Positions 2,431-61,205 are shown, counted from the first letter of the stretch. The stretch is 64,000 nt of DNA from an uncultured virus (IMG/VR IMGVR_UViG_3300031088_000740) (IMGVR_UViG_3300031088_000740), one strand, 5' to 3'. Program-made: numbers and translations. Notes: generated by a model from the letters alone, not told the origin.

Positions 2431-2877
2431 ATGAATACAGACGAAGCACGAGTGATTGTCAAGGGTAATGACTCAGTATCGGGATTCTGGCTCTTTATCG
2501 TCAGCGTTCTAGCTGTGCTCACTCTAATCGTCGTGTTCGTTAGCTCGGATGTGGGATGGGGCAAGCCGACTGCTCAGCAACTAGTTAACTCAGTGACTTC
2601 CGATGGACCAGAAGTGGTATTCACGAATGGATGGGAGAACTGTGGAGGCTCTGGCGGTCATCAGGGTGGGTGCTTCAACCCCTACACGCCAGACAAGATT
2701 TACGTATCACCTGATCTTCGCTACTCGCTCATGAAGTACATCGTTCTACACGAGACGACGCACTACGAGCAGTTCCACGCGGGCAGGGAACTAAATGAGT
2801 GCGAAGCAGATGAGCAGGCTAAGGAGTGGGGAGCCGATATCTCTCCAAGCGTTTACTATGACCAGTGTGACAACTAG
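2431..2877 (+). CDS. membrane-anchored zincin-like metallopeptidase
   Basis: N-terminal TM, HETTH (HExxH) and downstream ECEAD; TATGCT-N6-ATG. Confidence 0.6.
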   Translation: MNTDEARVIVKGNDSVSGFWLFIVSVLAVLTLIVVFVSSDVGWGKPTAQQLVNSVTSDGPEVVFTNGWENCGGSGGHQGGCFNPYTPDKIYVSPDLRYSLMKYIVLHETTHYEQFHAGRELNECEADEQAKEWGADISPSVYYDQCDN

Positions 2878-3593
2878 CTCTGAGCGTACTTCTGACCCGA
2901 GTCATAGCCGTGGTAAGCCTTGTCACGACCATATAGATAATCGCCGTAACGAACTTCTCCTACGAGATCTTTCAGCTTTGTTATGGCTTCACGACACCCC
3001 TTGAAAGCCTTACGCGCCTCGTACTCGGACTCGTATCCCATTTCTTCCATGAAGGACTTGAATCCAGACTGGTTGGTGCTGTAACCCTCGCCAACCAGCG
3101 CGTCAGAAGCGATAGATGACATGACATCTCCCATTTTAGGAGCAGTTGTCCAACCACTGCCAGTGAAGTAGGGAATCTCGATGGTCCTGAACTTACCCTT
3201 GTTCCCATCAAAGCAGTCCAAGGTTACTTCATACTGATAACCGTTGTCCGTACCAACCAATTTGGCGGTAGCAACAACGCCATCCTCTCCGGCTAGGAAG
3301 GGTACTCTACTGTCCATATCGTCAAATTCTTCGCTGTACTCCATCAGCGTATTTCCGTCATCATCCGAGACAACGTTCTCGAAGATCTCACTTGACTCGA
3401 AATCGTATCCGAGCAGTTCAGTATTCACGCCGCGCGGAGGAATGGGGTTATTTGATGATGCCACTTTGGATGCAGAAGGCGGCATCGCCACACCATCAAT
3501 TCGGGTGGCGCTAATGCCACCATCAGCCTTCTTGTGGCGCGTGGTGGTTACACCATTCTTATCGACGACGGTGGTCGGAATTAGGTTTGACAT
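2874..3593 (-). CDS. DKNG-tag protein, unknown payload
   Basis: MSNLIPTTVVDKNGVTTTRHKK N-terminus; GAGAAGAG RBS. Confidence 0.7.
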   Translation of the reverse strand: MSNLIPTTVVDKNGVTTTRHKKADGGISATRIDGVAMPPSASKVASSNNPIPPRGVNTELLGYDFESSEIFENVVSDDDGNTLMEYSEEFDDMDSRVPFLAGEDGVVATAKLVGTDNGYQYEVTLDCFDGNKGKFRTIEIPYFTGSGWTTAPKMGDVMSSIASDALVGEGYSTNQSGFKSFMEEMGYESEYEARKAFKGCREAITKLKDLVGEVRYGDYLYGRDKAYHGYDSGQKYAQS

Positions 3594-3828
3594 CGTGCTC
3601 TTCTCGATAAGTGAAATCAATCACTTGAATCTGTGTTCGGGTTGTTGAGGTGCTTTCAGCGCCATGACTAAATGGTAGTTCAATAAATTGTAGTGCCGAA
3701 GCGAAATCGGCGCTACTTGGCTCTCACTCTTTTGCTTACTCGCTATACATCATAGCAAAGACATATGACAGGCTCGACTAACAGTTTGCTTGACCCTCCG
3801 TGACCATTCTGTTACCGTTGGTTTCTCT

Positions 3829-4512
3829 ATGACTTATTCAAGCACACTAATCCAAAAGTTCGCTCCAGGTTTAGCGCTCGTATGTGTAGGAGGAATGCTT
3901 GTTGGTTCTACCCCGCCCGCAATGGCAGCGCCAGAATCAGTAACGCACGAAAGCATCTATGTATCTCCTGAGACCCAAGAGTACGCAGCCCCCTCTACCG
4001 CTACTGCCGCAGATCTTTCACGAGACTCTTACTCTGTAACCACCCCGCCGCCCATTCCTGTTGTGACCGACCCTACGTCGCCTTCTTATGCAATGGTATC
4101 TCGCGGGGCTACACCCTCAACATCAGGTCAGCCCGGAGCCGTAGCGAGCGTCGTAGCGCCTTCACAGACCTACAGCGGTGCTGCTGTCATCGCCTATGCC
4201 GATCAGTTCGTGGGTGTTGTTCCTTACGGCAACGGCAACAATCCCGCTGATAGCTTTAGCTGTGACGGCTTGGTTCAATACGTTATGGCTGCATTCGGCA
4301 AGTCACTACCGCGTGGGGCTGATTCACAAGGCAGCATGGGTACCGTCATTCCTGCCTCTCAGGCTGTTGCTGGCGACCTACTCTGGTACCCCGGTCAGCA
4401 CATCGGAATCTACGATGGCAATGGAGGCATGATCGACTCGCCTGATTGGGGTAGGAAGGTTCTTCATCGTAACTTCGTATGGGGCAGCCCCCTGTACGTT
4501 CGACTCCCATAG
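3829..4512 (+). CDS. secreted NlpC/P60 peptidoglycan endopeptidase
   Basis: signal peptide; FSCDGLVQY (Cys) ... GDLLWYPGQHIGIYDGNGGMIDS. Confidence 0.9.
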   Translation: MTYSSTLIQKFAPGLALVCVGGMLVGSTPPAMAAPESVTHESIYVSPETQEYAAPSTATAADLSRDSYSVTTPPPIPVVTDPTSPSYAMVSRGATPSTSGQPGAVASVVAPSQTYSGAAVIAYADQFVGVVPYGNGNNPADSFSCDGLVQYVMAAFGKSLPRGADSQGSMGTVIPASQAVAGDLLWYPGQHIGIYDGNGGMIDSPDWGRKVLHRNFVWGSPLYVRLP

Positions 4513-4519
4513 TCACGCC

Positions 4520-4554
4520 AAAGCCCCGGTCGAGTAAATTCGACCGGGGCTTTT
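4520..4554. terminator. bidirectional intrinsic terminator
   Basis: AAAGCCCCGGTCGA-loop-TCGACCGGGGCTTTT between convergent genes. Confidence 0.85.
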
Positions 4555-5178: not shown

Positions 5179-5199
5179 GGGTCGAGGCTATCATGGTAC

Positions 5200-5907: not shown

Positions 5908-5915
5908 TTTCTTCC

Positions 5916-6728: not shown

Positions 6729-6822
6729 GTGCTTTCCTTTCTACAATTCAACTGTACATGAGGCTAGATACAAAAGCAAACGCCGCCTCAAACCAGAGAC
6801 GGCGTTTGACGGTCTTCATGCC

Positions 6823-7074: not shown

Positions 7075-7085
7075 GAGTCCTCTTT

Positions 7086-7971: not shown

Positions 7972-8079
7972 GCTATCCCCTCCTTATGTATGAATCAAGA
8001 GTAGTGCATCTTTGCTCATATGGCAATGATCAGGTTGGTTAGGTCTAGCTAATCAACAGCAAAGGTGTAGAATCACTTC

Positions 8080-8412: not shown

Positions 8413-8450
8413 GTTTGCGTCAGGCGCATTTCGTGTGCAACCATTAGCGC

Positions 8451-8973: not shown

Positions 8974-8976
8974 CTT

Positions 8977-9657: not shown

Positions 9658-9683
9658 TCCCTTGGTTGTAAGTTGCTAGTGAA

Positions 9684-9726: not shown

Positions 9727-10014
9727 TTACTCAAACGGATTGACTCTCATGATGCGGCAGTCGCAGCCCCATCTAGTAGCCTTATCAAAAGCAGCTTGGT
9801 AGTCATTCATGACACAATTCGAATGCCAAACGTCCTCTCCTGACTCTTCATCGTATTCATCCCAACCCACGTCGTACAAAGTGCCCACTTCTGCGTCTCT
9901 GGTCTTCCAACCTTCTGATTGAGCCATGCTGAAATACTCCAAAGCGAGAATAGCTATCTCTTCTGGACCAGCACCTTCTATCTCTGCGATGAATTTGGCT
10001 GCAATGACACTCAT
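9727..10014 (-). CDS. hypothetical acidic protein
   Basis: 95 aa; TAATG stop/start coupling with the upstream Pth2-HD gene. Confidence 0.6.
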   Translation of the reverse strand: MSVIAAKFIAEIEGAGPEEIAILALEYFSMAQSEGWKTRDAEVGTLYDVGWDEYDEESGEDVWHSNCVMNDYQAAFDKATRWGCDCRIMRVNPFE

Positions 10015-11036
10015 TACTCGGCACCATTCTCGAACATGACCTTGCAGATAGCCTTGCCTCGCTGATCGAGCCTCTTGTACTTCATCTTGAATCCAGTTGA
10101 CTCAATACCACCGAACATTGCAGCATTGCTAGTCAACTCGGCAAGACCGCTGAGCAGTTGTGCAATGGCAAAGCCAGATTCAACGAACTGGGGTACATCT
10201 ACAGCGGAAAGCAGGTGGATATCCATATCGTGCTCAATGAGGTACGAGACGGATGCATCTGGAGAAGAGAAGGTGTCATTGTAAGTCCTCTGAGATGACT
10301 GTGCATGCATAGGGAAGTGCCTTTTACCCTCATCATCTACTTCGAGAACACTAGGCTTGCCGCAGTCATGTAGCGTGAGGTACCTATCCATGACATACCG
10401 GTCGGGAATGGCGCTGAGAAGCTCTATGCGGTAGTCAGCCAGCCAACTAGGCAAACGCCAGTTACTCGTCTGCGACAGGTCAACCTCGCCCCGTAGGTGA
10501 CTGATTAGAGCGAAGTAGTGTTCACGAACCGAACGACCATGCTGCAATACGTTCTGACCTTCTGTCTGCTCACAATCCATCATTGCGAAAGACATATCGC
10601 GGATCTTTCGCTCGCGCTGGCGAAGCTCAGACTCTCGACTTTCGCTGATGTTCCTACCTGCGCAACGAAGGTTAGAAAGAAGCTTCCTGGTGTTTTCCGA
10701 AGGTCCAAAAGCCAGTGCGGTAATCTCATCACCAAGATCAGGCTCTCTAAACTCTGTGACGAGCATTCCCTTACCGGCAGCAGACTCCTGCAACTCATAG
10801 AGATGTCTTGCGCTATCAGCCTCTAGGACGATAACCGAGTTGGAAGTAAGGTTCCATGTTTTCGCTTCGTCGGGGTTGTTCAAGATGAACTCCGCAACAA
10901 CGTGTGCGATTTGTGCGGTCTGGTATCCGCTGGATAGTTCTTTATGTGTAACGAGGTACAGCTTGTCTTTGTGTTCGAGTGATGCAGGCTCCACGATAGG
11001 AGCGGGGATGATGGTGTTGTTGGAAACCTAAGTCAT
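10014..11036 (-). CDS. Pth2-like peptidyl-tRNA hydrolase domain fused to an HD phosphohydrolase; in-frame TAG at codon 3
   Basis: KLYLVTHKELSSGYQTAQIAH...FREPDLGDEITALA (PTH2-like); HDCGKP...HFPMHA...HDMDIH (HD). AGAAAGAG RBS precedes ATG-ACT-TAG at 11036, 14 codons in frame upstream of the GTG at 10994. Confidence 0.8.
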
Positions 11037-11840: not shown

Positions 11841-11844
11841 TCGG

Positions 11845-11917
11845 TGCCTTTGACGGGATTTGAACCCGCGTACGCAAGATTTTAGAGATCTCCGCTCAGC
11901 CGCTGAGCTACAAAGGC
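11845..11917 (-). tRNA. tRNA with anticodon CUA (amber suppressor)
   Basis: acceptor GCCUUUG/CAAAGGC plus A73, D arm GCUC/GAGC, anticodon arm GAGAU-CUCUAAA-AUCUU, T arm GCGGG-UUCAAAU-CCCGU; anticodon at 11885-11883; CCA not fully encoded (CCG). Confidence 0.92.
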
Positions 11918-17433: not shown

Positions 17434-18123
17434 TCAGATTAGATGAGCAACCACAGTCAATGTGTTCGGCGCAACTTCGGTAAATCCGGCATCACGAACC
17501 TCTACACCCCAAGACTCCCTGCTCTCAAAAGACACAAGAGTAATGACGGGTCTATCTAGTTCCCATCGGAAAAGCTGTTCTGCGCTTGCTGACATGATTG
17601 CCAACTGCACAGCGTGACCAACTTGCGCCATTGACTTACCAGTGGTCATTTCGACTTCTGGATTGAGAGCAATGAGAATCTCTGCCCGGTCGTCCGATTC
17701 AATCGGTCTACTCGGTAGATCAAGACCCTGAACCTGTAGTTTCTTTACGGCAGGATTCTGATCGGTTACAAGGGTCGGTGGCATAACCCACACGACGGCA
17801 TCTCCGTAAGAACCGATGACACCAGGAACATCAGTCACTGCATCCCATGCAGAAGCTCTTGCTCTCTTAGCAAGCTTCCGAATGCGACCATCAAGCCACA
17901 GAGAGGTAGCCTCGTGCCAGTCTCCACCGTCACGAATCTCTTCGCTAAGGAAGTAGTCGCGAATGGCAGCAGCGGTTGCGAGCAAGGCATCTTCGTGAGA
18001 AAGGTCTAGACTCTTCTCCAGATCGAGAACGATAGGAAGCGCCCTGATCTCAGACTCGTCTCTATCCCATTCAGGGACGGAGGAAACAAGACCAGTGAGA
18101 TCGGAAAAAGACATAGCGCTCAT
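17434..18123 (-). CDS. Pth2-family peptidyl-tRNA hydrolase (actinobacterial type)
   Basis: LNPEVEMTTGKSMAQVGHA...VRDAGFTEVAPNTLTV; alternative start at 18114. Confidence 0.85.
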   Translation of the reverse strand: MSAMSFSDLTGLVSSVPEWDRDESEIRALPIVLDLEKSLDLSHEDALLATAAAIRDYFLSEEIRDGGDWHEATSLWLDGRIRKLAKRARASAWDAVTDVPGVIGSYGDAVVWVMPPTLVTDQNPAVKKLQVQGLDLPSRPIESDDRAEILIALNPEVEMTTGKSMAQVGHAVQLAIMSASAEQLFRWELDRPVITLVSFESRESWGVEVRDAGFTEVAPNTLTVVAHLI

Positions 18124-21444: not shown

Positions 21445-22779
21445 TTAGGACTCAAACTCAACCAAGTACTTGATGTTGACCTGCTCGGTGTTCCACACGA
21501 TAGCCTCGTGGTTTCTCACGCCACCGTAACCCGGACGAACGTTGATGGAGTTGAACGGCTTGCCAAACTTGTTCTTCTCGGTACGGGCGTAGCGAGGGTA
21601 GTTCTTGTCGTAGTTGCGACCCGTGCGGTACTCAGAACCCATCGCGACATCAGCAAGGAACATGAAGCAGCTATTGTCACGCGAGCCAGACCAGTAGCCG
21701 TGCGAGTAACCAAGGCTCTTAGTGCTGTCGTTGGAGAGATAGATACCATCTCCGAACATGCGACCTGCAATGACGTACTGACCACCAGTGGTCGGCGGGA
21801 CGAATAGCCCCCGACGAAGAATGGAAAGGATGTTGAAGCTACGTGAGCCGTGCCAAAGCTGCTGGACGTTACCAATCTCCTTGGCAATCTCGTCAAATCG
21901 CTTCTGACCTTCCTCGTCGGACACAGTGAAGATACGCTTGACCTTCAGGTAGCCCCAAGAGTGGTGGGCGTTCTTGGCATCCTGGTACTTCTTGACGATG
22001 CCCTTGTACTCATCAGATTCAGGGTCAAGAACAGCGACCTTGTACTTGAAGAGACGCTCGTACTTGGTGGCGATATCGTCGTCAGCAGTCGTTGCCTTCT
22101 TCTCCGCATCCTTGTTCGCCTCCGCAAACTTGATGGAGTCGGCAAGCTGGTCCAGAAGCTCGCGCTGCTTCTGGTACGAGTCAGCACCATCGAAGAAGGT
22201 CTCGTACCAGCCACGCTTAGCGGGAACCTTCTGAGGTACCAACTTGAGGTAGTTCTGCAACGCAGGAAGGAAGTCCGCGTCCGAGACCTTCAAGCCTTCC
22301 AGCTTGTCGATGAGGCGGCGAGCATCGTTGATGGACGACAGGCTGATGAGTCCGAGAGGGGTGCTCATCCGACCGGAATCAGCATCCACCTTGATGAGTC
22401 CGCCAGAAGCCTCGATGATCTCGTGGCGGTTGATGCGAACCAAGCGTTCAATGAGAGACTCAAGCTCAGGGTTGCCGTGCTCACCCACAAGAACAGTCTT
22501 TGCAACCTCCGTGAGGTGCGACTGATCGCCAGTCTCCTTTGCCTTGGTGGTAGTCACCACTTCGGTGCGCTCGTAACCCTTGCGCATCTTGCCGCGAATG
22601 ATTCGCTCGAAGGCAACAGGACCGCCAGACTGGTTGCTGTATGCACCAGAACCACCCACGCGACCGTAGTGGATCTTGATGGCACCAGTGCTAAACAGGG
22701 TGGCATGATAGAACTTGTTGTGGTTGTCGATTCCATCAACAAGGATGAGCATTTCTTCGCGCTCGATTACATCAGCCAT
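21445..22779 (-). CDS. WGR-domain PARP-family ADP-ribosyltransferase
   Basis: NKFY...HYGRVG...KMRKGY (WGR); LWHGS, GRMFGDGIYLS, KSLGY, NHEAIVW (H-Y-E triad). Confidence 0.9.
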   Translation of the reverse strand: MADVIEREEMLILVDGIDNHNKFYHATLFSTGAIKIHYGRVGGSGAYSNQSGGPVAFERIIRGKMRKGYERTEVVTTTKAKETGDQSHLTEVAKTVLVGEHGNPELESLIERLVRINRHEIIEASGGLIKVDADSGRMSTPLGLISLSSINDARRLIDKLEGLKVSDADFLPALQNYLKLVPQKVPAKRGWYETFFDGADSYQKQRELLDQLADSIKFAEANKDAEKKATTADDDIATKYERLFKYKVAVLDPESDEYKGIVKKYQDAKNAHHSWGYLKVKRIFTVSDEEGQKRFDEIAKEIGNVQQLWHGSRSFNILSILRRGLFVPPTTGGQYVIAGRMFGDGIYLSNDSTKSLGYSHGYWSGSRDNSCFMFLADVAMGSEYRTGRNYDKNYPRYARTEKNKFGKPFNSINVRPGYGGVRNHEAIVWNTEQVNIKYLVEFES

Positions 22780-25715: not shown

Positions 25716-25798
25716 AAGTCAATAGTACATCGTTCGCACGACACCCTAATGCAAGAGACCCTTACCGTTGCCAGTAAGGGTCTATACATAGACGAAAC

Positions 25799-27019: not shown

Positions 27020-28072
27020 TTATGTCCAGGTCGAATCGACATTGGCTGCATAGGCTGGCTTGTGCACACCAGCTACTTCGTCCCAGCCATATCCAACAGC
27101 CTTGCTGTCAAGAACCGCAGGGTTGTCCTTGTTGATAGTGGTGTTGATGCCACCACCAGAGAACTCAACCTCATGACCAGAACCGTTATACTTGTCGATC
27201 AGAAGCACGTGTGCCGAATCACCGAATTCTAGGCGGCGCTCATCCTTCTGCTCACCGTCAACCCACTCACCAACGTTGGCATCAGAGATGTCGCCGTACC
27301 AAATGATTTCGGCGGAAACACCCTCGTGCCAATCGTAAGGTCCGTTGTCAACAAGCTCAGCAAGATTGTCGAGTGCTTCCTTCGAGGTAACGTCAAACCC
27401 TCTATCACCGAGGATGTCCTGAAGAACCTTGATTCTCGCTTCTGATGCGCGGTCATTTCTACCCCACTGAACCGTACTTACGAAGTCTTCGCCGCCAAAG
27501 GTGTTTTCGTCACCGGTCTCAAAATCGGAAGTATCGTGGTTCGCAGCGTAGTCAACAGCCTCGCCGCTCATGTTGTCACCAAGCACCGCTCGCATAAGCT
27601 GACTGGGTGTGTTTCTAACCAGATCGTTCACGGGGTTTGATTCGTCCTTATCCATGATGGCGAATCGCAACTCGTCCTGATCTTCAGGCTCTAGGTCATC
27701 CCATTCGATATCGACAGCAGCAAGCTTCTCTTTCGCAATATCGACAGCAGCTTCATACACTGAATCAGAGAACACGTTATCGATCTCTTCAATAACGTCG
27801 TCAATAGTACCGCTGAGGTAAGACTCAATCTGACCATCCATGAGCTTGTCGTCGTAATTGACGTAAGCAAGGGAGAACTTCTCGTCACCCTTGTTGATCG
27901 CACTGAGAACCTGCTCGTAAGGTCCACCACTAGACTCGACACTGGAAGTCGATGGGGTAACCCCGGCAACTCGGTTAACAGCGTCCGAAGCACCCTTATC
28001 CAAGTTCTTGTGGACAGTGGTTGTCTTACCGTTCTTGTCAACGATCTGGGTTGGTGTCAAATTGCTCATCAT
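27020..28072 (-). CDS. DKNG-tag acidic protein
   Basis: PTQIVDKNGKTTTVHK; GAAAGGA RBS. Confidence 0.8.
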   Translation of the reverse strand: MMSNLTPTQIVDKNGKTTTVHKNLDKGASDAVNRVAGVTPSTSSVESSGGPYEQVLSAINKGDEKFSLAYVNYDDKLMDGQIESYLSGTIDDVIEEIDNVFSDSVYEAAVDIAKEKLAAVDIEWDDLEPEDQDELRFAIMDKDESNPVNDLVRNTPSQLMRAVLGDNMSGEAVDYAANHDTSDFETGDENTFGGEDFVSTVQWGRNDRASEARIKVLQDILGDRGFDVTSKEALDNLAELVDNGPYDWHEGVSAEIIWYGDISDANVGEWVDGEQKDERRLEFGDSAHVLLIDKYNGSGHEVEFSGGGINTTINKDNPAVLDSKAVGYGWDEVAGVHKPAYAANVDSTWT

Positions 28073-30275: not shown

Positions 30276-30779
30276 CTAGCGAGACCTGTGTGCTTCTACT
30301 ACGTCGTCTATGAGGTTGAGCTTTACCTCGAACAGACCCCACGCAAGAGGTGCCTCCTTGACATAGCCAGACTCATTACCTCGGGTGTAGTCAAAGTTAC
30401 GGAGTGCTCGGGTGAGTGAGTCAACTTCGCTCCCATCTACGTCACTTGGTTCATCTACGGAATAAAGAGTCTTTCCGTTCTTGTCAAACACGCCGGTAAT
30501 CTCTTCGAAGTCATCAGCATCTTCGTTTAGACCCACACAGAAGCTCTCGGCTCCCGGGAACACAACACGAAAGTCATGTGAGAGATCAGACAAGAAAGCG
30601 TCTTGCTTAGCTTCTATCTGCTCTGGCGTGGTAGCGAAAACGAATGGTCTGCTACCACTAAGGCGAAGGTTGCGAGAGTCGTCTTGGTCTTGTGACTTAT
30701 GTACGGTGGTTGTCTTCCCATTCTTATCAACAATCTGGGTGGGCACCTTAGGTCCACGGGTGGGGTTCTTTCCTGGCAT
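30276..30779 (-). CDS. DKNG-tag protein
   Basis: PTQIVDKNGKTTTVHK; AAGGAG RBS. Confidence 0.8.
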   Translation of the reverse strand: MPGKNPTRGPKVPTQIVDKNGKTTTVHKSQDQDDSRNLRLSGSRPFVFATTPEQIEAKQDAFLSDLSHDFRVVFPGAESFCVGLNEDADDFEEITGVFDKNGKTLYSVDEPSDVDGSEVDSLTRALRNFDYTRGNESGYVKEAPLAWGLFEVKLNLIDDVVEAHRSR

Positions 30780-31249: not shown

Positions 31250-31386
31250 CACGAACCCTCCTGTACATCCAATTGTACCGGCAGTGGGTGACACCATAAA
31301 TCTAAGTCCGAAAAGAGCGATGGCGGGGGTGGTTAGCCCTAGAATGATGACCGACCCGATACACCACTTGCCGAAAGAGGAAACCA

Positions 31387-31879: not shown

Positions 31880-32518
31880 TTACCCGATGCCGTTCAGTGC
31901 GAAGTCATCACGGTGCCGCCAGTCCGCCGAAGTGGTGACGTGACCTGCCCGGACGAACTTGGCAACCTTGCTACGGAAGTCCTTCTCCGCAATCGTTCCA
32001 GCATCTCGCAGAACAAAGCCCTCGGAAACGGTAGTGTCCTTCTGCTTCTCCCATGCAGCCACAGCCTCATCGAAGTCATCGCCCCGGTACAGGGTGGGAA
32101 CAACCGGAAGACCAAGCTCAGCAGCAAACTCCTCAGTGAAGTCCCAATCAAGCAGTTCATCCTTGTCATCCCAGACACCAAAGACCATGTAGAAACCCGG
32201 TAGGGAGTCATAGCCGACGCTACGACGGGCGTAGAGGCTCTCACCGGACACTCGCCAGCCTTCGGGAATCTGAAAGCGCACAGAAGCCCACAGCGCCTTA
32301 GCGGGGGTATCCCACGAGTGGGTTCCCGAGTCAAGCGAACGAGCGAAGAAGTGGTTACGAGTCATGGTGACGTTTCCGCCGTCCATCTTCTCGGTCACCA
32401 AGAACTCACTCGCGCTACGGAGCGTGTCAAGACCTGACTTGGTGATGAACTTGTCATCGGACGTAGCACCCGGGGAAGTCGGCAGGTGTGCCGTACGGGG
32501 ATACTTTTTGTTCTCCAT
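31880..32518 (-). CDS. ATP-dependent RNA ligase (Rnl2-like adenylyltransferase domain)
   Basis: KYPRTAHL, TEKMDG (motif I), GES, EGFVLR, AKFVR. Confidence 0.85.
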   Translation of the reverse strand: MENKKYPRTAHLPTSPGATSDDKFITKSGLDTLRSASEFLVTEKMDGGNVTMTRNHFFARSLDSGTHSWDTPAKALWASVRFQIPEGWRVSGESLYARRSVGYDSLPGFYMVFGVWDDKDELLDWDFTEEFAAELGLPVVPTLYRGDDFDEAVAAWEKQKDTTVSEGFVLRDAGTIAEKDFRSKVAKFVRAGHVTTSADWRHRDDFALNGIG

Positions 32519-36493: not shown

Positions 36494-36570
36494 AAGGGGT
36501 GCCTTTCAAGAGGGTTAGTTACAGTGTACCTCTTGTGTATGACACCTTTCTTTCGACCTGACAAACAAGT

Positions 36571-40706: not shown

Positions 40707-40762
40707 TTGACTCGAATGCCCTCCTTCTGATAGTGTTTGTGTATCAACCAGAAGGAGGGCAT
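40707..40762 (+). promoter_or_regulatory. promoter TTGACT-N18-TAGTGT embedded in a 14-bp hairpin that sequesters the downstream RBS
   Basis: arms 40716-40729 and 40749-40762; right arm contains AAGGAGG. Confidence 0.7.
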
Positions 40763-40766
40763 CGTC

Positions 40767-41561
40767 ATGTCAACACAAGAAATCAGCTTGTCGGGCATCG
40801 ACGACCTTTCGTTGATCCTTCACACTGTCTACGGTTCTGAAGTTCACCACATCAACTACGGTGATGCATCAGACCGAGATGAAGTCGCTATCTACGTCCC
40901 TACGATTGACGAAGCACTGAGCCTTCAGTCTCCGATTGAACTGTATCGGTATCGCTCTGCCTATGACCGTAGAGGCGAAGAGGACTACCATACTCAACCT
41001 CGTAGTCAGAAAGGCGATCTGGACTTCAACGTTTACGAAGTGAGGCATTGGTCTCGCATTGCTCTAACGGGTAGCCCATTCATCCTCGCACCACTGTTTG
41101 TTGACGAAGAGTGGATTATCTCGGAGACAGATATGGGCGCGGAGCTTCGAGAGAACTGGGATCGGTTCATGTCTCGAAGCGTCATCACCAAGTCAATTGG
41201 TTACATGAAGTCACAGTACGAGCGGATGATGGGCATTCGAAGCAACAGGGTATCTCGACCTGAGCTTGTCGATGCTCATGGTTACGATACGAAGTTCGCG
41301 GCTCACATGATTCGCATTGGTATCCAAGCTCGCAAGGTGGTTGCTGGTAAGGGTATCGAAATTCCTGTCAATCCTGTCGATGCTGCAAAGATTCGATCTG
41401 TCCGAGCAGGTGAGGTAGAGCAAGATGAGGTGGTCGCTTGGTATCACGCACTCTACGCTGAGCTTTCTTCTGCACTAGATGAAGAAAGGTACTTTGTTCC
41501 CGAGGAACCGGATTACGCTTGGGTGAATGACTGGGCAGTAAGAGCCATCCGCAATCAGTGA
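40767..41561 (+). CDS. predicted nucleotidyltransferase (Nuc-transf/YcgL-like)
   Basis: GSEVH...SDRD; GYDTKFAAHMIR...IRSVRAG. Confidence 0.8.
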   Translation: MSTQEISLSGIDDLSLILHTVYGSEVHHINYGDASDRDEVAIYVPTIDEALSLQSPIELYRYRSAYDRRGEEDYHTQPRSQKGDLDFNVYEVRHWSRIALTGSPFILAPLFVDEEWIISETDMGAELRENWDRFMSRSVITKSIGYMKSQYERMMGIRSNRVSRPELVDAHGYDTKFAAHMIRIGIQARKVVAGKGIEIPVNPVDAAKIRSVRAGEVEQDEVVAWYHALYAELSSALDEERYFVPEEPDYAWVNDWAVRAIRNQ

Positions 41562-42629: not shown

Positions 42630-43208
42630 TTAGTCGGTCTTCAAGCTATCAAAGAAGGCGAGCATTCTGTCTAGGTCGGGCTTCAGCATACCGTAGTCAG
42701 GGTCAGTAGCCAAGACCAAGTGAGGAACATCAAGATCCCCCACGAAGTCTTTGGGGTCATAACTCGGTGTCGCGTCATCATCGATCCAGACGAACGGACG
42801 CGGATCTGCACGAAGGGTTGCGAGAAGAGCAGCATACTTCCTGTCCGCCCTGATGAGGGTTACCAAGTCCGAAGTGGCTTTGTCGGTGCCACTCGGAAGA
42901 CCGCCATCAGCATCCCAATCGACGTAACCGTCCGAGCGAGTAAGAAGCGCCCTATCGACATCAGTCACGGTGGTGTCAAGCCAGGTAGACAGCCACAGCC
43001 ACTTGAACCCATACAGGTTCTTGGCGGAGTTGAACTTGCTCACCATCTCTGCCGAATACATCACGGGGAATGTGTATCCATAGCGAGAGTAGCCAAGGTT
43101 GTTCTTTCGAACATAACCAAAGGCATCCTTTCGCCGCACGTAAGAGTTCTTCGATGCGGAGATGTTGAAAACTCCGTCGAAGTCACTGAGCAGTAATGGC
43201 GTATTCAT
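42630..43208 (-). CDS. HAD-family phosphatase (RNA-repair-associated type)
   Basis: LSDFDGVFN, WLSTW, PFVWIDDD. Confidence 0.8.
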   Translation of the reverse strand: MNTPLLLSDFDGVFNISASKNSYVRRKDAFGYVRKNNLGYSRYGYTFPVMYSAEMVSKFNSAKNLYGFKWLWLSTWLDTTVTDVDRALLTRSDGYVDWDADGGLPSGTDKATSDLVTLIRADRKYAALLATLRADPRPFVWIDDDATPSYDPKDFVGDLDVPHLVLATDPDYGMLKPDLDRMLAFFDSLKTD

Positions 43209-45137: not shown

Positions 45138-45995
45138 TCAGTTGAACATCCTCATGAGTACGGCTTGTGCGTGCTCGAAAAGCTCACGCTGGTCTCTCTG
45201 GACCTGGGAGTGGAATCCTGGCTCGTCAGGCTCTTCAATGACACCATTGTGGTGATCGAGAGGGAATACTACCTCTGGCTGGTTGATGCCCTGTCTAAAC
45301 GAGACAGTACTGGAGTCACCGTCAAGAGCAATCTTGTATGCACCCAAGTTTTTGGTCATAACCATTACTGCATTGTTAGGTCTCTCTCCGGGACCGAGGT
45401 CACCACCATAAGGGTAACTGCTGGTCACCTCTACGAAGGCACCGGGAGTACTGATTTCCTTGTCTCGGAAAATGAGCGGACGGTTAGAAAGACCTCCACC
45501 TTTGAAGCTTTCAACACCCTTAGCTTCCCAGTCCTTGATAGCCTGAGCTTTGTCCATGTTTCGGTAGTAACCTCGAACATAGTGCTGAACGGCACCAATT
45601 CGGGTTGTATCTCCCTTGCCCATGTTGTCTGAACGCTCACCAACGGTATCAGTTTCGTTGCCCCGAGTGAGGGCGTACCACCTGCTTGAAACGGAGTTTC
45701 GGGTGACATACCTTTTGCTGCCACCACGGCTTGTGTCGGTATCGCGCTTCTCTACCATGCCGATAGGAGTGCCATTGAAGTAGATCAACTGGTCCTCGCC
45801 GTCAGTGACCTTCCCTACTTCGATGACATCATCCTTGTCACGCATAGGGTTTTCAATCTGAATCCTCTTACTGTTGCCAGGAGCACCAACACCAGCAACC
45901 CGATTCTTCGTCGGCGCGGAATCAGCACGCTTCTTTCGGGTGGTCTGCACACCGTTTTTATCAACGATGGGCGTGGGTACAAGATTACCTGACAT
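45138..45995 (-). CDS. DKNG-tag protein
   Basis: PTPIVDKNGVQTTRKK; AAGGAG RBS. Confidence 0.8.
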   Translation of the reverse strand: MSGNLVPTPIVDKNGVQTTRKKRADSAPTKNRVAGVGAPGNSKRIQIENPMRDKDDVIEVGKVTDGEDQLIYFNGTPIGMVEKRDTDTSRGGSKRYVTRNSVSSRWYALTRGNETDTVGERSDNMGKGDTTRIGAVQHYVRGYYRNMDKAQAIKDWEAKGVESFKGGGLSNRPLIFRDKEISTPGAFVEVTSSYPYGGDLGPGERPNNAVMVMTKNLGAYKIALDGDSSTVSFRQGINQPEVVFPLDHHNGVIEEPDEPGFHSQVQRDQRELFEHAQAVLMRMFN

Positions 45996-49588: not shown

Positions 49589-50116
49589 ATGAAGCGTTCA
49601 TCGGCAACTAACACAAGCCGCCATTTGGCGTACCTGCTTCGTCACGAGCCTTCTTTCGTCAACGAGTTTGGGTGGGCAACTATCTCGGCAGCAGAGAGCG
49701 CATTGAGCGCACACGCTGGTGGCACTGTCACTCGCGGCGACATTAAGAAGATCGTTGCCGAGGACTCCAAGGGGCGTTACGAGATTCAGGGCGAGCGTAT
49801 CCGCGCTGTTCAGGGTCATTCGCACCCTGTCAACCTTGGATGGGTTTCTACGACCCCGCCCGAGACTCTTCTTCACGGAACGGTCGAGAAGTTCGCTGGC
49901 GCTATCCTTCGCGAGGGTTTGAAGCCTCAGTCTAGGACGCACGTCCACATGTCGGAGACGGTTGAGACTGCCGTTCAGGTCGGTTCACGTCGGGGAGAGG
50001 CAGTGATTCTCACCATCAACGCTGCACAAGCTGCGGCAGAGGGCGTAGCCTTTTTCCAGTCCGCCAACGGTGTCTGGCTTGCTCAGCACGTCCCAGCTAA
50101 GTTCATCAGCCGCTAA
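49589..50116 (+). CDS. kptA: RNA 2'-phosphotransferase (Tpt1/KptA)
   Basis: LLRH, KGRY, IRAVQGHS, HGT, RTHVH, VGSRR, NGVWL. Confidence 0.92.
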   Translation: MKRSSATNTSRHLAYLLRHEPSFVNEFGWATISAAESALSAHAGGTVTRGDIKKIVAEDSKGRYEIQGERIRAVQGHSHPVNLGWVSTTPPETLLHGTVEKFAGAILREGLKPQSRTHVHMSETVETAVQVGSRRGEAVILTINAAQAAAEGVAFFQSANGVWLAQHVPAKFISR

Positions 50117-50579: not shown

Positions 50580-51197
50580 ATGAGCAACACTAGACCAGAG
50601 CAAGTTGTCGATAAGAACGGCGTTCTCACCACCCGTCACAAGTCAGTGGATAGTGGAAGGCGACTGGACGATAGATCTTCCGGTGTTGCGTTGCCGAAGT
50701 CAGAAAGAGCAACCAATGCAACGCTTGACTTCAATGACATTGGTGACAACAGCACCGTTATCCATCACATTGATGACCCGATCTTCACATCTGTAGAGGT
50801 CAAGTCAGAAAACGGCAAGTTCACCGCAATGGCTCAGTTCACCCTTGATGGAGAACTGGAGCCACTCATCTACGAGGTTGATGACCTATCTGATTACCTC
50901 AGGGACAACTACTCCGAGGTAAAGGGTATCCTCATGAGTCAGTATGGTGCCGATTCGGTCGAACTGGACTACCTAGATGCCACATTGACAGTAGGGTACG
51001 CCGTACCGCTGGAAGGCGGAAAGACTACCGAGAACGATCTACTGGATAGTCTGTACGAAACACGTGGTGTAAGCCTCCACGATGATGCCAACAACTCGGA
51101 CAAGCTTGTATTCGCACTCTCTGATCTAGGCTCAGATCAAGATGACTCATTCGAGCCGAGGCACTCCGGAAAGTTTGCATTTGACGACGAGGGTTAG
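50580..51197 (+). CDS. DKNG-tag acidic protein
   Basis: PEQVVDKNGVLTTRHK; GAAAGG RBS. Confidence 0.8.
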   Translation: MSNTRPEQVVDKNGVLTTRHKSVDSGRRLDDRSSGVALPKSERATNATLDFNDIGDNSTVIHHIDDPIFTSVEVKSENGKFTAMAQFTLDGELEPLIYEVDDLSDYLRDNYSEVKGILMSQYGADSVELDYLDATLTVGYAVPLEGGKTTENDLLDSLYETRGVSLHDDANNSDKLVFALSDLGSDQDDSFEPRHSGKFAFDDEG

Positions 51198-51994: not shown

Positions 51995-52600
51995 ATGACC
52001 TTGAAAGATCTGGATACCAAGAATACCGTCGCTATCAACTGGCTTATCGCCGTGTCTATCACGGTGTTTGTTTTTCCCTTTGTGGTCATGCTGTCGATTT
52101 TCACGGTGATCCCTAGCTTTTTAGCATTCATCCCGCTCTTCATTGGCGCGCCATACTTCACCTTCGTGGCTATCTACAGTGCAGTCAAGAGGAAGGCTGA
52201 GATACCTATAGGGTTTACCATCGATGAGAAGGTTCTTCAGTTCGGAACACTGCGCCAGCAGATCACGCTACTGGCAAACATAATCCTCGTAGCCAACCTG
52301 TCAGGATGGGCACTCGTACTGTTCTTAGGTAGTACAAGAAGCATTGTTTTTGTTGTGGTCGTGCTGACCGGGTTCCTCGGTATTCTCTCCATCATCGTCA
52401 ACATTCCGCTCATTTACGGTAAGTTTTACTGGTCGGAGAGGGTCGCAAGAAGGGATCACCTGGGTCGTTGGAAGTTCATCAGGGCATCCAGAATTCTATG
52501 TTGGTCTGTATGGTCCATTTATGCCGCTATGAGTCTCATCATCCTCTTTGCTGGAAGGTTTCTTGATCTAACCGATCACCTCCTTGGTGTCGCTAGCTAG
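51995..52600 (+). CDS. multi-pass membrane protein
   Basis: about 5 TM; TACCCT-N6-ATG. Confidence 0.65.
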   Translation: MTLKDLDTKNTVAINWLIAVSITVFVFPFVVMLSIFTVIPSFLAFIPLFIGAPYFTFVAIYSAVKRKAEIPIGFTIDEKVLQFGTLRQQITLLANIILVANLSGWALVLFLGSTRSIVFVVVVLTGFLGILSIIVNIPLIYGKFYWSERVARRDHLGRWKFIRASRILCWSVWSIYAAMSLIILFAGRFLDLTDHLLGVAS

Positions 52601-52632
52601 CGGTAGACTAAGTTCACACCGGAAGGAACATC

Positions 52633-57203: not shown

Positions 57204-57255
57204 ACAATCTCAAATCTTTTCGTCACACTGACTAAAACTCTGCTACCATGTGCAC

Positions 57256-57921
57256 ATGAGCGCAGTTATCGAGATTTTCAACATCGTGGTATTCACAGCC
57301 TTCGGAGCGCCAGTAACGCTTCTGGAGCTATTCGGATTCATCACTGGTGGACTTTGTGTCTGGGCGGTGGCGAAGCAGTACAAGTGTAATTGGTACGTCG
57401 GTGCGGCAAATGCAGCGGCATTCATCTTCCTGTTCTTCGGAGTCGGTCTTTACGCAGACGCATTCCTCCAGGTCGTCTTCCTCGTGATGAGCTTCTACGG
57501 CATCTACTCTTGGACATTCGGAGGCAAGGGAACCGCCAAGAACGCACTTCCCGTCAGGCGAGTGGTACCCAGGGAGTTGTTCATCTTGATTCCACTCACT
57601 ATCGCCGCCACGGTAGGTGTAGCCCACCTACTGAGAGCAGAGACCGACAGCAACGTGTACTGGTTTGATGGTGCCGTGCTTACCCTCTCGATTCTGGCAA
57701 CCTACGGACAGACCAAGAAGATCGTCGAAAGCTGGTACGTCTGGATTGTTGTGGACCTCATCTCCATCCCGCTCTACTTCTACAAGGGACTCACACTCAC
57801 AGCGTTGCTCTACGGAGTGTTCCTCACGCTCTGCTTCATCGGTCTTGTCAAGTGGAGAAGTGAGTTGACCCCCAAGAAGACCATCACCGACACCACACGA
57901 ATTGCAGAGGTAGCAGCATGA
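57256..57921 (+). CDS. pnuC: nicotinamide riboside transporter
   Basis: multi-TM; LYAD..LQ, D...LSILA, ESWYVWIVVDLISIPLY; TACCAT-N6-ATG at 57256. Confidence 0.92.
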   Translation: MSAVIEIFNIVVFTAFGAPVTLLELFGFITGGLCVWAVAKQYKCNWYVGAANAAAFIFLFFGVGLYADAFLQVVFLVMSFYGIYSWTFGGKGTAKNALPVRRVVPRELFILIPLTIAATVGVAHLLRAETDSNVYWFDGAVLTLSILATYGQTKKIVESWYVWIVVDLISIPLYFYKGLTLTALLYGVFLTLCFIGLVKWRSELTPKKTITDTTRIAEVAA

Positions 57922-59030
57922 GCAAGCAGTACAGACACGCGGTAGTCATCGGTAAGTTCTACCCGCCTCATGTGGGTCACCTCCACCTGATTCAGGAAGC
58001 AGCGAGGGTGGCAGAGAAGGTTAGCGTCGTAGTGTACGGAAGTCGCTACTACAACATTCCCGCCCAAACGAGAGTCGAGTGGATGTACGCTGACCTCGAA
58101 GTACCCGATAACAACGTCACGCTCTACCCCGCCGAGTCGGATATCTATGAGGACTACAACAGCGACATCATCTGGGATGCGCACATGTCCCACTTGCGCG
58201 CTTTCCTTCGAGTACGCGGGCTAGAAGGTGCTTTCGATGTCGTAGTTGCAAGTGAAGAGTATGCCAATGTCATGGCGCGAGACTACTTCGGTGGCATTTC
58301 CGCACATGTTGTCGATACCGAGAGGGTTGCTTTCCCCATCTCTGGGACGGCTTTCAGGAACGATGCGGTCGCCAACTGGAACTACCTAATACCCTCTGCA
58401 CGCCGTGCGCTGATGCCTAGGGTCATTGTTCTGGGTTCCGAGTCCACAGGCACCACGACGCTCTCCAAGGCGCTCAGCGAGCACTACAACGCCCGTTGGG
58501 TTGCGGAATACGGCGCTCAGTACACCTTTGACCGACTGGCTGAGGGGCAAGCAGCAGACCACAACTTCGGAATGGACGATATCGTCTGGGATAACAAGGC
58601 GTTCGCAGATATCGCGAAGAAGCAAACACAACTCGAAGACGAAGCGGTATTGGCAACTGATGGTCGTTTCCCGCTCTTCATTGGTGACACAGATGCCTTT
58701 GCTACGGCACTATGGGAGAAGCGTTACACGAGCGGCATTTCCACCTACGAATCGACCACAAGAGGTTATGCCAGCAACCTCCCCAAGCGCGACCTCTACA
58801 TCATTACAGACCATCAAGGGGTTGCCTTTGAGCAAAACGGAATCCGCGATGGAGAGCACATTCGAGAAGACATGACGACAGACTTCGAAGACGCTCTGGC
58901 TATAATCAATGCGTCTTGGATCAAGATTCGAGGCACTCATGATGAACGAATGGACGCGGCAACACACATGATCGATGGCATCATTGCTACCGCATTTGAG
59001 TTCACTGACCCAAAGAGGTTCTCGCGCTAG
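57918..59030 (+). CDS. nadR: NadR-type NMN adenylyltransferase / ribosylnicotinamide kinase
   Basis: GKFYPPHVGH (HxGH), ISGT, P-loop GSESTGTTT, EYG, DTD; ATGA coupled to pnuC. Confidence 0.9.
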   Translation: MSKQYRHAVVIGKFYPPHVGHLHLIQEAARVAEKVSVVVYGSRYYNIPAQTRVEWMYADLEVPDNNVTLYPAESDIYEDYNSDIIWDAHMSHLRAFLRVRGLEGAFDVVVASEEYANVMARDYFGGISAHVVDTERVAFPISGTAFRNDAVANWNYLIPSARRALMPRVIVLGSESTGTTTLSKALSEHYNARWVAEYGAQYTFDRLAEGQAADHNFGMDDIVWDNKAFADIAKKQTQLEDEAVLATDGRFPLFIGDTDAFATALWEKRYTSGISTYESTTRGYASNLPKRDLYIITDHQGVAFEQNGIRDGEHIREDMTTDFEDALAIINASWIKIRGTHDERMDAATHMIDGIIATAFEFTDPKRFSR

Positions 59031-59545
59031 TCACTCTCAGGTTCTAGTACGCGGTGACCAATCCACTCAATGTTGTTGACAGGGATGCCAAAAGCACGAG
59101 CAGCATGCTCCCGAGTGGCTTTGGTCGTTACCGAACCAGCGAGAATCTGCTTGGTGATGCCCTGGGCGGTCTTAAGACTTACTCCGCCCCGGGTCATGAT
59201 GCTGGTAGAAAGTTGCTCTGTATCCATACTCCGGCTAGCTGCCGAGAAGACAATACCAGCAGCGAACAGAACGCTTGCTCGGTCTGCACCAGACTCCAAG
59301 AGAGTGACAAGCGAACCCATCTGCTCAAAGTACGAAACTGGCTTGCCGGTTGCCTTGGCGATTGCCTTCTTAGTAGCTACAGAAGGCTCGACACTTCCAT
59401 TCTTGTATCCATAGATAAGGTCAGTAGATGCATCAGGAGATCCAGAAGCTTCGAGCTTCTTGGCGAGTTCGTCATTGGTCATATTCACTGCTCGTGAGTG
59501 GTGAAGAAGTCCCTTGCCAAAGGCTACCGAGTGCGTCGAAGTCAT
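59027..59545 (-). CDS. XRE-family HTH protein (possibly two HTH repeats)
   Basis: MTNDELAKKL...IYGYKNGSVEPS...IAKATGKPVSYF. Confidence 0.7.
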   Translation of the reverse strand: MTSTHSVAFGKGLLHHSRAVNMTNDELAKKLEASGSPDASTDLIYGYKNGSVEPSVATKKAIAKATGKPVSYFEQMGSLVTLLESGADRASVLFAAGIVFSAASRSMDTEQLSTSIMTRGGVSLKTAQGITKQILAGSVTTKATREHAARAFGIPVNNIEWIGHRVLEPESD

Positions 59546-59624
59546 AGTATTCGCATACTACCCCAAATCCTTCGATGAGTCTACTTCCGCCTGTAGAATG
59601 ACACAACTATCTATTAGGAGCGAG

Positions 59625-60173
59625 ATGTCGATTTTCACCCACGTACCAGATGAGTTTGAGTTCGAGTATCAGGGTGGAAACTTCTTCGCCAAAAAGTCGT
59701 TCTGGCAAAACACCCTTGACAAGAGTTGCACTACATACATCATCTCCCTCGAAGACCGAGGCGAAATTGGCGAGCTTGACATCAATGTCAACACCGATGA
59801 CTGGGAAGCCGATTCCAAGGAATTCATAGATACGAAGGTAGCCGACCTCACGATGGATAAGTTCATCCAAACCGGCGACGAAGATGTCAACGAAAGCCTC
59901 GTCGAGGCAGTTACTTCACCACCCGAAGAAGAGACTGACTTCGTAGTCGAAGAAGACGAAGATGTACTACCTTTCCCTGCTGTCGAAGAAGATGACAGCA
60001 TTCCAGCCGTAGGTGAAGTGCACGGTGAGTCTTTTGACGGCGACAATGCCGAAGCGGTCCAAGAAGTAGATGAGTCACAGACGAACGATCAGCCGCGCGA
60101 TGAAGAGTTTGTATTCGGTATCAACACCGATACGCCTGACAACGCAAGATACGGATTCAGTCAGAGTAACTGA
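59625..60173 (+). CDS. highly acidic hypothetical protein
   Basis: AGGAG RBS; D/E-rich C-terminal half. Confidence 0.6.
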   Translation: MSIFTHVPDEFEFEYQGGNFFAKKSFWQNTLDKSCTTYIISLEDRGEIGELDINVNTDDWEADSKEFIDTKVADLTMDKFIQTGDEDVNESLVEAVTSPPEEETDFVVEEDEDVLPFPAVEEDDSIPAVGEVHGESFDGDNAEAVQEVDESQTNDQPRDEEFVFGINTDTPDNARYGFSQSN

Positions 60174-60221
60174 GAGTCGGTAGAAGCATCTACAATGGGA
60201 TGAGACCTAAGGAGCTAGAAA

Positions 60222-61205
60222 ATGGGCAAGATTAAGACATCCATTGTCGATAAGAATGGCAAGTCAACTCACGTGTGGAAGAACCCCGACGTGCCTGGCG
60301 GAAACAAGTCATTCGACCGACTAGGTAATGTCGCAACTCAGTACATTCCTATCTCGCAGGAAGAAAGCGACTCGAACTTCTCCGGTATCGTGTTTGGTAG
60401 CGATATGGCAAGTATCACTACCAAGGATGGTGGCGATATGGTTCCTCTTAGCATTCCCGAAATGGGCGCTGTCTCATCAGAGCTAGCAGCTTTCCAGTGG
60501 GAAGGCGTGGTCAATGAGAAGAGCAAGACGACAAGGATATCCAAGGATCTTGCCGTTTCTTATGACGGACCTGTGTTTACAATTCACGATTCACGTGCAG
60601 GAAACATCACGCTGAACGGCGATGAAGCAAGCTTGCTTGCACGTAACATCGACCTTTACATGAACACTGCTCGTGGAGTCGATGGCTTGTTGCAAGTTGG
60701 TGGATATGCTGATTTTGTCGAGTCGCCCGTTAGCGATAGAGAGATGAATTACTACATCACTCTTGGAGAAGGGTCACTCGTCGCCCTCTACATTTCCGAT
60801 GCTGGACTCAGCCCCGAAGAGGATGCTTCTTATGGGGACGAAAGAGATCAGGTTTCGTTCTCTCGCGTTGATGGCGAGCCAAACAAGGTACACGCGCAAT
60901 TTGCGTTCTCCGATGATGGTTTTGACATCGATGGTGTTGTGGATGATCTAGATGATGATGCACTAAATGAGTTCAGAGAGGGCATTCAGTCCAGCTTGAA
61001 TGATATCGACTCTCGATGGGCTGCTAGCTTTGACAACGAATCAAGTGTCGAACTTCTCTACAACCACTACGACCAAGCTGAGGTGGATAGTGAAGGAAGA
61101 GTAGAATTCACCACATCAAACGTCTTGGCTGCTGGTGAGATTGATATGAACCCTACCATCGACGCTGCATACAAAGTCATTTGGGATGCCATCGAAAACC
61201 TGTGA
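60222..61205 (+). CDS. DKNG-tag acidic protein
   Basis: KTSIVDKNGKSTHVWKN; AAGGAG RBS. Confidence 0.8.
   Translation: MGKIKTSIVDKNGKSTHVWKNPDVPGGNKSFDRLGNVATQYIPISQEESDSNFSGIVFGSDMASITTKDGGDMVPLSIPEMGAVSSELAAFQWEGVVNEKSKTTRISKDLAVSYDGPVFTIHDSRAGNITLNGDEASLLARNIDLYMNTARGVDGLLQVGGYADFVESPVSDREMNYYITLGEGSLVALYISDAGLSPEEDASYGDERDQVSFSRVDGEPNKVHAQFAFSDDGFDIDGVVDDLDDDALNEFREGIQSSLNDIDSRWAASFDNESSVELLYNHYDQAEVDSEGRVEFTTSNVLAAGEIDMNPTIDAAYKVIWDAIENL

Follow-up and report, generated by a model that had tools for sequence, protein, structure and literature searches.

Marking unrelated cargo with one N-terminal region for a single machine is a known strategy, used by the MIX and LXG marker domains and by the cargo signals of extracellular contractile injection systems and Photorhabdus virulence cassettes (eCIS/PVC). 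Here we describe a protein tag that opens 18 genes of IMGVR_UViG_3300031088_000740, a 64,000-nucleotide stretch of DNA from an uncultured virus in IMG/VR (the window, with positions counted from its first letter). The logic of this tag matches three published systems, but its sequence, size, position and host match none of them. In phage T4, the internal proteins IPI-III carry the capsid-targeting sequence (CTS), a short conserved N-terminal address; the proteins that bear it are small, diverse, fast-evolving and anti-defence in function, and they accompany the DNA (PMC3012670). The second system is the Xanthomonas VirD4-interacting protein conserved domain (XVIPCD) of the X-Tfe, the effectors of a type IV secretion system (T4SS). 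There one module sits on polymorphic effectors and one component of the machine reads it: the XVIPCD is described as a proteobacterial, C-terminal domain of about 120 residues that binds the all-alpha domain of VirD4, built alpha-alpha-beta-beta-beta plus a Gln-rich tail, whose contact is a beta-sheet with exposed hydrophobic residues (PMC8740702). The third is the polyvalent proteins which, in the account of Iyer et al. (2017), are thought to be sent by phages and conjugative elements into a new host with the DNA. They join 2–15 domains in one giant polypeptide, including ArdC-N, zincin MPTase, ART, GNAT and ParB-like domains, and ArdC-N is their N-terminal "header", which couples the effectors to delivery (PMC5512222).

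An earlier note, made from the sequence alone, had claimed that 18 genes of the window share an N-terminal DKNG tag. All 18 do open with one module of about 40 residues, and they make up about one in five of the genes in the window (Table 1). The module reads M-S-N-x-x-P-T-P-I-V-D-K-N-G-K-x-T-T-V-H-K-K, followed by a variable stretch and then by R-h-x-x-h-x-x-P (h, hydrophobic). A hidden Markov model (HMM) of the 18 tags scores its members at 40.9–66.8 bits (self-scores), and the best non-member among 1,499 six-frame segments of the window reaches 4.7 bits, so there is no further copy in the window and the pattern is not there by chance. An HMM scan of the full genome and of related phages had been proposed as a check; within the window it leaves the set as first listed. 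The exact D-K-N-G is present in 16 of the 18; the variants are D-K-L-G in gene 36493 (genes are named by their start position), D-V-N-G in gene 39804 and a divergent D-S-R-G in gene 12020. The tag begins 18 residues past the ATG in gene 30186 and six past it in gene 30779. Its isoelectric point (pI) in the window is 9.4–11.1. The tagged genes are scattered on both strands, as had been noted, with eight on the plus and ten on the minus strand.

Alignment A3 combines tags of the window, of a relative and of metagenomes, 125 in all and no two identical. Its consensus is M-S-N-[TLK]-x-P-T-P-I-V-D-K-N-G-K-x-T-T-V-H-K-[KRN]-x-[DE], then 6–8 variable small or polar residues, then R-h-x-x-h-x-x-P. Aspartate and glycine of the core are present in 125 of 125 rows, asparagine in 123, lysine in 119, and the two threonines in 119 and 117. 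A second motif, first described as R-x-x-hydrophobic-P, does exist downstream, but R-h-x-x-h-x-x-P is the better form of it (R in 114 of 124 rows, P in 78 of 122).

Profile A1, made from the window tags alone, was searched against 1.84 billion representative proteins and matched 745 representatives at E≤1e-3, of which 52 reach E≤1e-10. The tag starts at residues 1–5 in 142 of the best 150 matches; one match, P0020, is a repeat artefact. Ten clusters that we looked up among these matches come from metagenomes alone, and none of them has an informative name. Within IMG/VR the tag occurs in one contig only, which we call G001. A strict back-translated pattern found 113 stretches on some 60 contigs in Joint Genome Institute (JGI) metagenomes, where contigs of 358, 231, 180 and 100 kb carry many copies (the long tag-bearing contigs were viewed as 3-kb pieces). 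These loci give 158 distinct tagged frames. An upstream ATG was found for 145 of them, and counted from the nearest one the tag is in every case only −3 to +3 residues off its expected register. Some proteins have more than one tag: P0006 (770 aa) has three copies, and P0019 (600 aa) has one at each end, around a core that is ADP-ribosyltransferase-type by eye and matches no Pfam family. Together with gene 30779, these look like fusions of neighbouring tagged genes.

We found no match to the tag region in Pfam, PHROGs or NCBIfam and no usable match in the ESM Atlas, and the best result of a sequence profile search of the PDB was an ssRNA-phage coat hairpin at E 0.027. The tag is absent from the 50,697 phage records and 72,556 plasmids that we searched, and the strict back-translated pattern did not find it in 185,579 species genomes. 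Literature searches, including a full-text search with the motif core, returned unrelated papers or analogues and no description of the tag. To judge from sequence, the tag looks like an undescribed address label on many unrelated soluble proteins.

Selection on the tag acts at the protein level. At 172 distinct core sites all synonymous codons are used, both for the glycine (GGC 83, GGT 53, GGA 22, GGG 14) and for the first threonine (ACC 71, ACG 38, ACA 30, ACT 30). Synonymous sites vary freely, so selection is on the peptide and not on the DNA, and for the same reason we rejected a conserved leader RNA, a recombination cassette and a translation signal. The positions G+1 and G+5 change as a pair: among 264 tags, G-K...V occurs 230 times, G-V...R 16 times and G-R...V 14 times, and the combinations K...R and V...V do not occur at all. 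Such paired change fits one structural unit. The flavours D-K-N-G-K-x-T-T-V-H-K and D-K-N-G-V-x-T-T-R-H-K coexist in one element (examples in the window are at 45858-45995, 50580-50717 and 3456-3593).

AlphaFold2 on A3 predicts a two-stranded beta-hairpin, with strands at residues 3–9 and 15–21 joined by the D-K-N-G-K loop, at a predicted local distance difference test (pLDDT) score of 91–95 over the first 20 residues. The model thus supports the hairpin with a DKNG turn that had been proposed. With the strand register read from the model, I, V, V, T and T lie on one face and the basic residues on the other. In the full-length model of gene 45995 (alignment A4, 15 family members), residues 1–41 drop to a pLDDT of 31–50, while the payload at residues 45–285 is mostly at 64–89 per ten-residue block, with two blocks at 45–54. 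Since the tag has low pLDDT while the payload folds, we believe that the hairpin is an appendage on a flexible leash, outside the payload fold. The members of this family are 18–44% identical overall, and nine of the 11 invariant columns lie within the tag, so that the tag is much better conserved than its cargo. When the model of this family was searched by fold against the PDB, nothing matched at E≤0.001. The tag is polar and basic and has no hydrophobic core of the Sec, Tat, lipoprotein or prepilin signal type, and A3 has no conserved acidic cleavage motif of the prohead-protease type after it. The top 19-residue Kyte-Doolittle mean is at most 1.03 in all 18 tagged proteins of the window, which agrees with the earlier observation that none has a signal peptide or transmembrane (TM) segment; by comparison, 25 of all 84 open reading frames (ORFs) of a greedy non-overlapping set reach 1.6.

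What follows the tag differs from gene to gene. Grouping by blastp divides the 240 tagged payloads of every source into 105 components, of which 57 have a single member, so a separable, modular tag on diverse payloads holds far outside the window as well. Within the window the payloads are mostly unrelated, as claimed, with one paralogous pair (genes 19575 and 20582; blastp E<1e-3), and they are indeed acidic, with a median pI of 4.4 against 5.3 for the 65 untagged ORFs and a net charge down to −47. Tagged proteins are 97–770 aa long and mostly have a single payload. Pfam names a payload in three of the 18 window proteins (DUF6900, DUF7226, HD_4) and in five of the 18 in G001 (ArdcN with MPTase-PolyVal, GmrSD_N, CCA-adding enzyme, DUF7007 and a weak Tox-PLDMTX). 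Four of 139 representative tagged proteins have a match (GmrSD_N, SprT-like, a weak ArdA and LRV), as do four of 93 metagenomic tagged ORFs (ART-PolyVal, ADPrib_exo_Tox, GNAT and a weak Tox-PLDMTX). The payloads that can be named therefore include ArdC-N/zincin proteins, ADP-ribosyltransferases, GNAT, a ParB-like nuclease, SprT, an HD hydrolase and a CCA enzyme. Leaving LRV and the DUFs apart, these are, by their family matches, domain types of the polyvalent proteins as Iyer et al. describe them (PMC5512222). The tagged set reads like a polyvalent arsenal that has been unbundled into separate genes, each with a small common header.

The window has a G+C content of 49–52% and short, dense genes on both strands; the 84 ORFs of the greedy set cover 91% of it. 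For several of its proteins (27020-28072, 45138-45995, 21445-22779 and others), identical copies or near-identical members of the same cluster sit on metagenome contigs of 412,594, 637,428 and 805,269 bp, which makes the window a minor portion of an element of at least 0.64–0.8 Mb. Two window proteins searched in IMG/VR had no relatives there, and a 40-base piece of the window's DNA had no exact match in it. Pfam matches 28 of the 65 untagged proteins, against three of the 18 tagged ones. DUF2510, DUF732, LytR_cpsA_psr, WhiB and HA domains suggest an actinobacterial host; the best genome matches of a thioredoxin-reductase-like gene are in Schaalia, Actinomyces and Sanguibacter, at about 40% identity. 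Searches of the window with Pfam (the 65 untagged proteins) and PHROGs (48 of the untagged proteins) revealed no capsid, terminase, portal, protease or tail family. Going by these sequences, the clade consists of giant uncultured mobile elements, probably with hosts in the Actinomycetota, and we lean towards plasmid-like elements, with giant phages a serious second choice.

G001 is a contig of 202,737 bp with a G+C content of 51%, listed as a provirus, and it has 18 tagged genes between 2 and 133 kb. Tag-bearing proteins are all that it has in common with the window (blastp E<1e-5), mostly through the tag alone. Neither PHROGs on 140 proteins nor Pfam on 74 and 22 found capsid, portal, terminase or tail families in it, and six-frame searches with TerL_ATPase, Terminase_6N and Phage_capsid found none. 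G001 does have pilus-type genes of the Tad or type-IV-like kind: two T2SSE, a T2SSF, a prepilin-peptidase match below the Pfam cut-off, and a run of proteins with one N-terminal hydrophobic segment; about nine proteins of the cluster are pilin-like, some of them longer than 500 aa. A very divergent VirB4-like ATPase (AAA_10) lies beside a 12-TM protein of 1,297 aa. There are also an FtsK/SpoIIIE protein and a sub-threshold match to Replic_Relax (relaxase); a search with T4SS-DNA_transf found no VirD4-type coupling protein. The contig has no terminal repeat, a complete type I-E cas set, and 64 tRNAs with a tmRNA in one 17-kb array. It also has DnaE, clamp, clamp loader, GyrA, NAD-dependent ligase, ribonucleotide reductase and WhiB genes, and among phages its DnaE is nearest to those of Streptomyces phages. 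We rejected a small cell genome, since the scanned proteins include no RNA polymerase, ribosomal-protein or aminoacyl-tRNA-synthetase match.

Set against the described systems, the tag differs from the T4 CTS in its length of about 40 residues, its predicted beta-hairpin and the lack of a recognisable cleavage site after it. No T4-type head, scaffold or protease genes were found in the window or G001, and the carriers may not be phages. The two sequences are probably unrelated. From the XVIPCD the tag differs in being N-terminal and about 40 residues long and in having, in all probability, an actinobacterial host; in G001, moreover, the search for VirD4 gave no match. Polyvalent proteins are single giant polypeptides, whereas here each effector has a gene and a tag of its own, and the tag matches no Pfam model of that system. 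They lie beside T4SS or portal-terminase genes; G001 has the VirB4-like and FtsK/SpoIIIE proteins, no VirD4 and a sub-threshold relaxase, and its tagged genes are scattered. MIX, LXG and the eCIS signals serve the type VI secretion system, the type VIIb secretion system and contractile injection systems, none of which was detected here, and their sequences and sizes are unrelated to those of the tag.

Our preferred reading, which we hold tentatively, is that the tag serves as a docking header: through it an arsenal of effectors would be loaded onto a single conserved partner and transferred together with the DNA. The header would consist of a basic amphipathic beta-hairpin with its D-K-N-G-K loop, a short anchor (R-h-x-x-h-x-x-P) and a flexible leash rich in Pro, Ala and Ser, and the element clade would place it on a large, fast-changing set of soluble, mostly acidic effectors. 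One conserved partner would read the hairpin, probably against its hydrophobic face, whatever payload follows. The effectors would then be loaded on the element's own transfer machinery, enter a new host with the DNA, and act there ahead of gene expression in anti-restriction, protein and nucleic-acid modification, and tRNA and RNA repair. The hairpin is conserved, payload-independent and, in the model, flexibly tethered, so a docking element for one conserved partner is the best explanation that we have. It is strengthened by the conservation of the tag between elements that otherwise share nothing. No single substrate unites the payloads, which range over DNA mimic-like proteins, ssDNA-binding proteins, nucleases, proteases, ADP-ribosyl- and acetyl-transferases, a ppGpp-type hydrolase and a tRNA CCA enzyme; this makes shared transport or loading more plausible than a shared target. 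We count the transfer-type genes of G001 (VirB4-like, FtsK/SpoIIIE, pilus) in favour of co-transfer, and as the vehicle we consider a conjugation-type apparatus somewhat more likely than a capsid. The earlier idea of an address tag on an effector set is thus supported in outline: the module and the diversity of its payloads stand, and the payloads that can be named are of a DNA-delivered kind.

A bolder version of co-transfer is doubtful but worth stating. The tag may direct proteins into a delivery route of monoderm (actinobacterial) hosts that has not been described before, with a dedicated receptor on a divergent VirB4/FtsK/type-IV-pilus-like apparatus or on an unrecognised capsid, and with the effectors injected ahead of the DNA. 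For this route each giant extrachromosomal element of 0.2–0.8 Mb would maintain some dozens of hairpin-tagged effectors, every one encoded by its own gene.

Several points weigh against docking and co-transfer. There is no candidate for the reader: blastp found no untagged protein common to the window and G001, so the partner would have to lie outside the 64 kb or be encoded by the host. The T4SS signals that we know of are C-terminal or internal, none N-terminal. As a transfer system G001 is incomplete, with no VirD4-type match, a relaxase below threshold and a very divergent VirB4-like protein. The tag can also be internal or C-terminal (the three copies of P0006 and both ends of P0019), so a free N-terminus is not essential, and the tagged genes are scattered and not grouped by the transfer genes. 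Finally, a Pfam family is found in only 16 of 268 tagged proteins. Thirteen of these are of effector or anti-restriction type, four of them below the cut-off, so the label "effector" rests on a small minority.

The reading that follows the earlier note, a giant phage whose tag loads effectors into proheads for injection in the style of the T4 CTS, we now think unlikely. That system is the textbook case of one N-terminal address on diverse anti-defence proteins (PMC3012670). G001 is listed as viral in IMG/VR and has its 64 tRNAs and tmRNA, phage-like replication and nucleotide genes and a DnaE nearest, among phages, to those of Streptomyces phages. A suppressor tRNA and HNH, RNA-repair and NAD genes of the sort typical of large phages are present in the window, and a head module could lie elsewhere, since we see 64 kb of at least 640 kb. 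Nevertheless, capsid, portal, terminase, protease and tail families were found neither in the window nor in the 203 kb of G001, no protease-type cleavage motif follows the tag, and no cultured phage among the 50,697 records carries it. The JGI tag-bearing contigs of 358, 231 and 180 kb are not in IMG/VR, where G001 alone matched. A phage carrier and a virion destination are the parts of the original proposal that find no support.

A less probable alternative is nucleic-acid binding by the basic hairpin: it would attach to the DNA of the element or to an RNA and tether acidic effectors there, with no protein reader. The contrast in charge fits this, as tags of pI 9.4–11.1 sit on payloads of median pI 4.4. 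Basic two-stranded ribbons are a known nucleic-acid-binding form, and several payloads (ArdC-N, GmrSD_N, SprT, CCA enzyme) act on DNA or RNA. However, only about four basic residues are conserved, the invariant D and the T-T pair would be unusual as contacts to nucleic acid, and the hydrophobic face of the predicted hairpin (I, V, V, T, T) would suit protein docking. ArdC-N and CCA enzymes bind nucleic acid already and yet are tagged; in particular, the ArdC-N protein keeps its tag beside an ssDNA-binding header of its own, which argues that the tag does something besides DNA binding.

We give an equally low chance to the tag being a control handle for a host or element factor, such as a chaperone, an adaptor or protease for timed degradation, or a modifier like the element's PARP. 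A conserved host partner would fit the conservation of the tag across elements that are otherwise unlike. The PARP gene at 21445-22779 lies among tagged genes, and ADP-ribosyl hydrolase and Macro genes lie beside tagged genes in relatives, but this link between PARP and tag is one of proximity only. There is no reason for such unrelated enzymes to need one common control, and we know of no degron class that the tag resembles. Some other explanation altogether would be a long shot.

Regulation gives one more feature of the tagged genes. The promoter-like sequence GGTGTC-N12-TA(C/G)NNT occurs eight times in the window against 1.65 expected, and four of these copies immediately precede tagged genes. 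A looser form, GGTGT[CT]-N11-21-TA[CG]NNT, is found in relatives upstream of 11 of 124 tagged ORFs and of none of 116 untagged neighbouring ORFs. From these sites a subset of the tagged genes appears to be co-regulated, and we count this too in favour of the docking header.

Table 1. Tagged genes, promoter-like sites and other features of the window, and gene sets of G001 (G001 coordinates in kb).
Feature	Coordinates	Strand	Score (bits)	Remarks
Tagged gene, 239 aa	2874..3593	-	59.5	tag = first ~40 codons (3456-3593); acidic payload, pI 4.4; no Pfam match
Tagged gene, 143 aa	12020..12451	+	40.9	divergent tag G-I-D-S-R-G-R-A-Y-T-R; payload DUF6900 x2 (E 2.6e-23)
Tagged gene, 273 aa	19575..20396	+	60.0	paralog of gene 20582, payloads 62% identical
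Tagged gene, 272 aa	20582..21400	+	59.8	first 46 aa modelled as beta-hairpin
Tagged gene, 330 aa	22885..23877	-	55.1	acidic payload
Tagged gene, 219 aa	25056..25715	-	49.5	promoter-like site upstream
Tagged gene, 350 aa	27020..28072	-	66.8	payload net charge about -47
Tagged gene, 205 aa	28202..28819	+	55.2	T-T-V-W-K variant
Tagged gene, 173 aa	29665..30186	-	61.0	18-residue extension ahead of tag is K/P/Y-rich
Tagged gene, 167 aa	30276..30779	-	62.5	2 domains; weak internal second copy F-D-K-N-G-K-T-L-Y-S-V near 30485
Tagged gene, 147 aa	30806..31249	-	58.1	promoter-like site upstream
Tagged gene, 267 aa	35690..36493	-	56.0	D-K-L-G-R variant; payload DUF7226; promoter-like site upstream
Tagged gene, 300 aa	39804..40706	+	48.8	D-V-N-G-H variant; payload RelA/SpoT-type HD hydrolase (HD_4)
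Tagged gene, 174 aa	44612..45136	-	54.3	T-H-V-W-K variant
Tagged gene, 285 aa	45138..45995	-	62.4	G-V...R variant; in largest payload family (16/240)
Tagged gene, 205 aa	50580..51197	+	62.3	G-V...R variant
Tagged gene, 247 aa	52633..53376	+	59.8	promoter-like site upstream
Tagged gene, 327 aa	60222..61205	+	49.3	payload net charge about -41
Promoter-like site	25722-25745	-		GGTGTC-N12-TACTAT; before gene 25715
Promoter-like site	31272-31295	-		before gene 31249
Promoter-like site	36523-36546	-		before gene 36493
Promoter-like site	52586-52609	+		before gene 52633
tRNA, anticodon CUA	11843-11917	-		amber suppressor; ARAGORN label tRNA-Pyl
PARP gene, 444 aa	21445-22779	-		WGR + PARP catalytic domain
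RNA-repair set	31880-32518, 40737-41561, 42630-43208, 49589-50116, 10014-10994, 17434-18123			RNA ligase, RlaP nucleotidyltransferase, HAD_SAK_2, Tpt1 2'-phosphotransferase, two PTH2-like proteins
NAD-salvage genes	57250-59030			PnuC and NadR-like
G001, tRNA array	64.9-81.8 kb
G001, cas set	114-122 kb
G001, pilus cluster	24.5-42 kb
G001, VirB4-like cluster	142-163 kb

Some other genes of the window deserve mention. The amber suppressor tRNA lies between an HNH gene and tagged gene 12020; we rejected recoding of TAG despite this tRNA, as TAG is the stop codon of 18 of 82 ORFs. The PARP shares 36–39% identity with its counterparts in jumbo phages of Xanthomonas and Stenotrophomonas, and among the genes that adjoin tagged genes in relatives of the element are ones for ADP-ribosylglycohydrolase and Macro proteins. 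The RNA-repair genes are dispersed through the window.

A single 20-residue motif pulls several hundred otherwise unannotatable protein families from metagenomes as one functional class, and the tag is a bait for the transfer machinery of a clade of elements of 0.2–0.8 Mb. If the tag is a delivery address, one could search with it for new anti-defence and host-takeover proteins encoded by mobile elements of actinobacteria, and it would give a portable handle for loading foreign cargo. If the delivery route that we sketched above is real, the tag would define a new class of signals for secretion or packaging, and its carriers would form a catalogue of hundreds of unknown counter-defence proteins.

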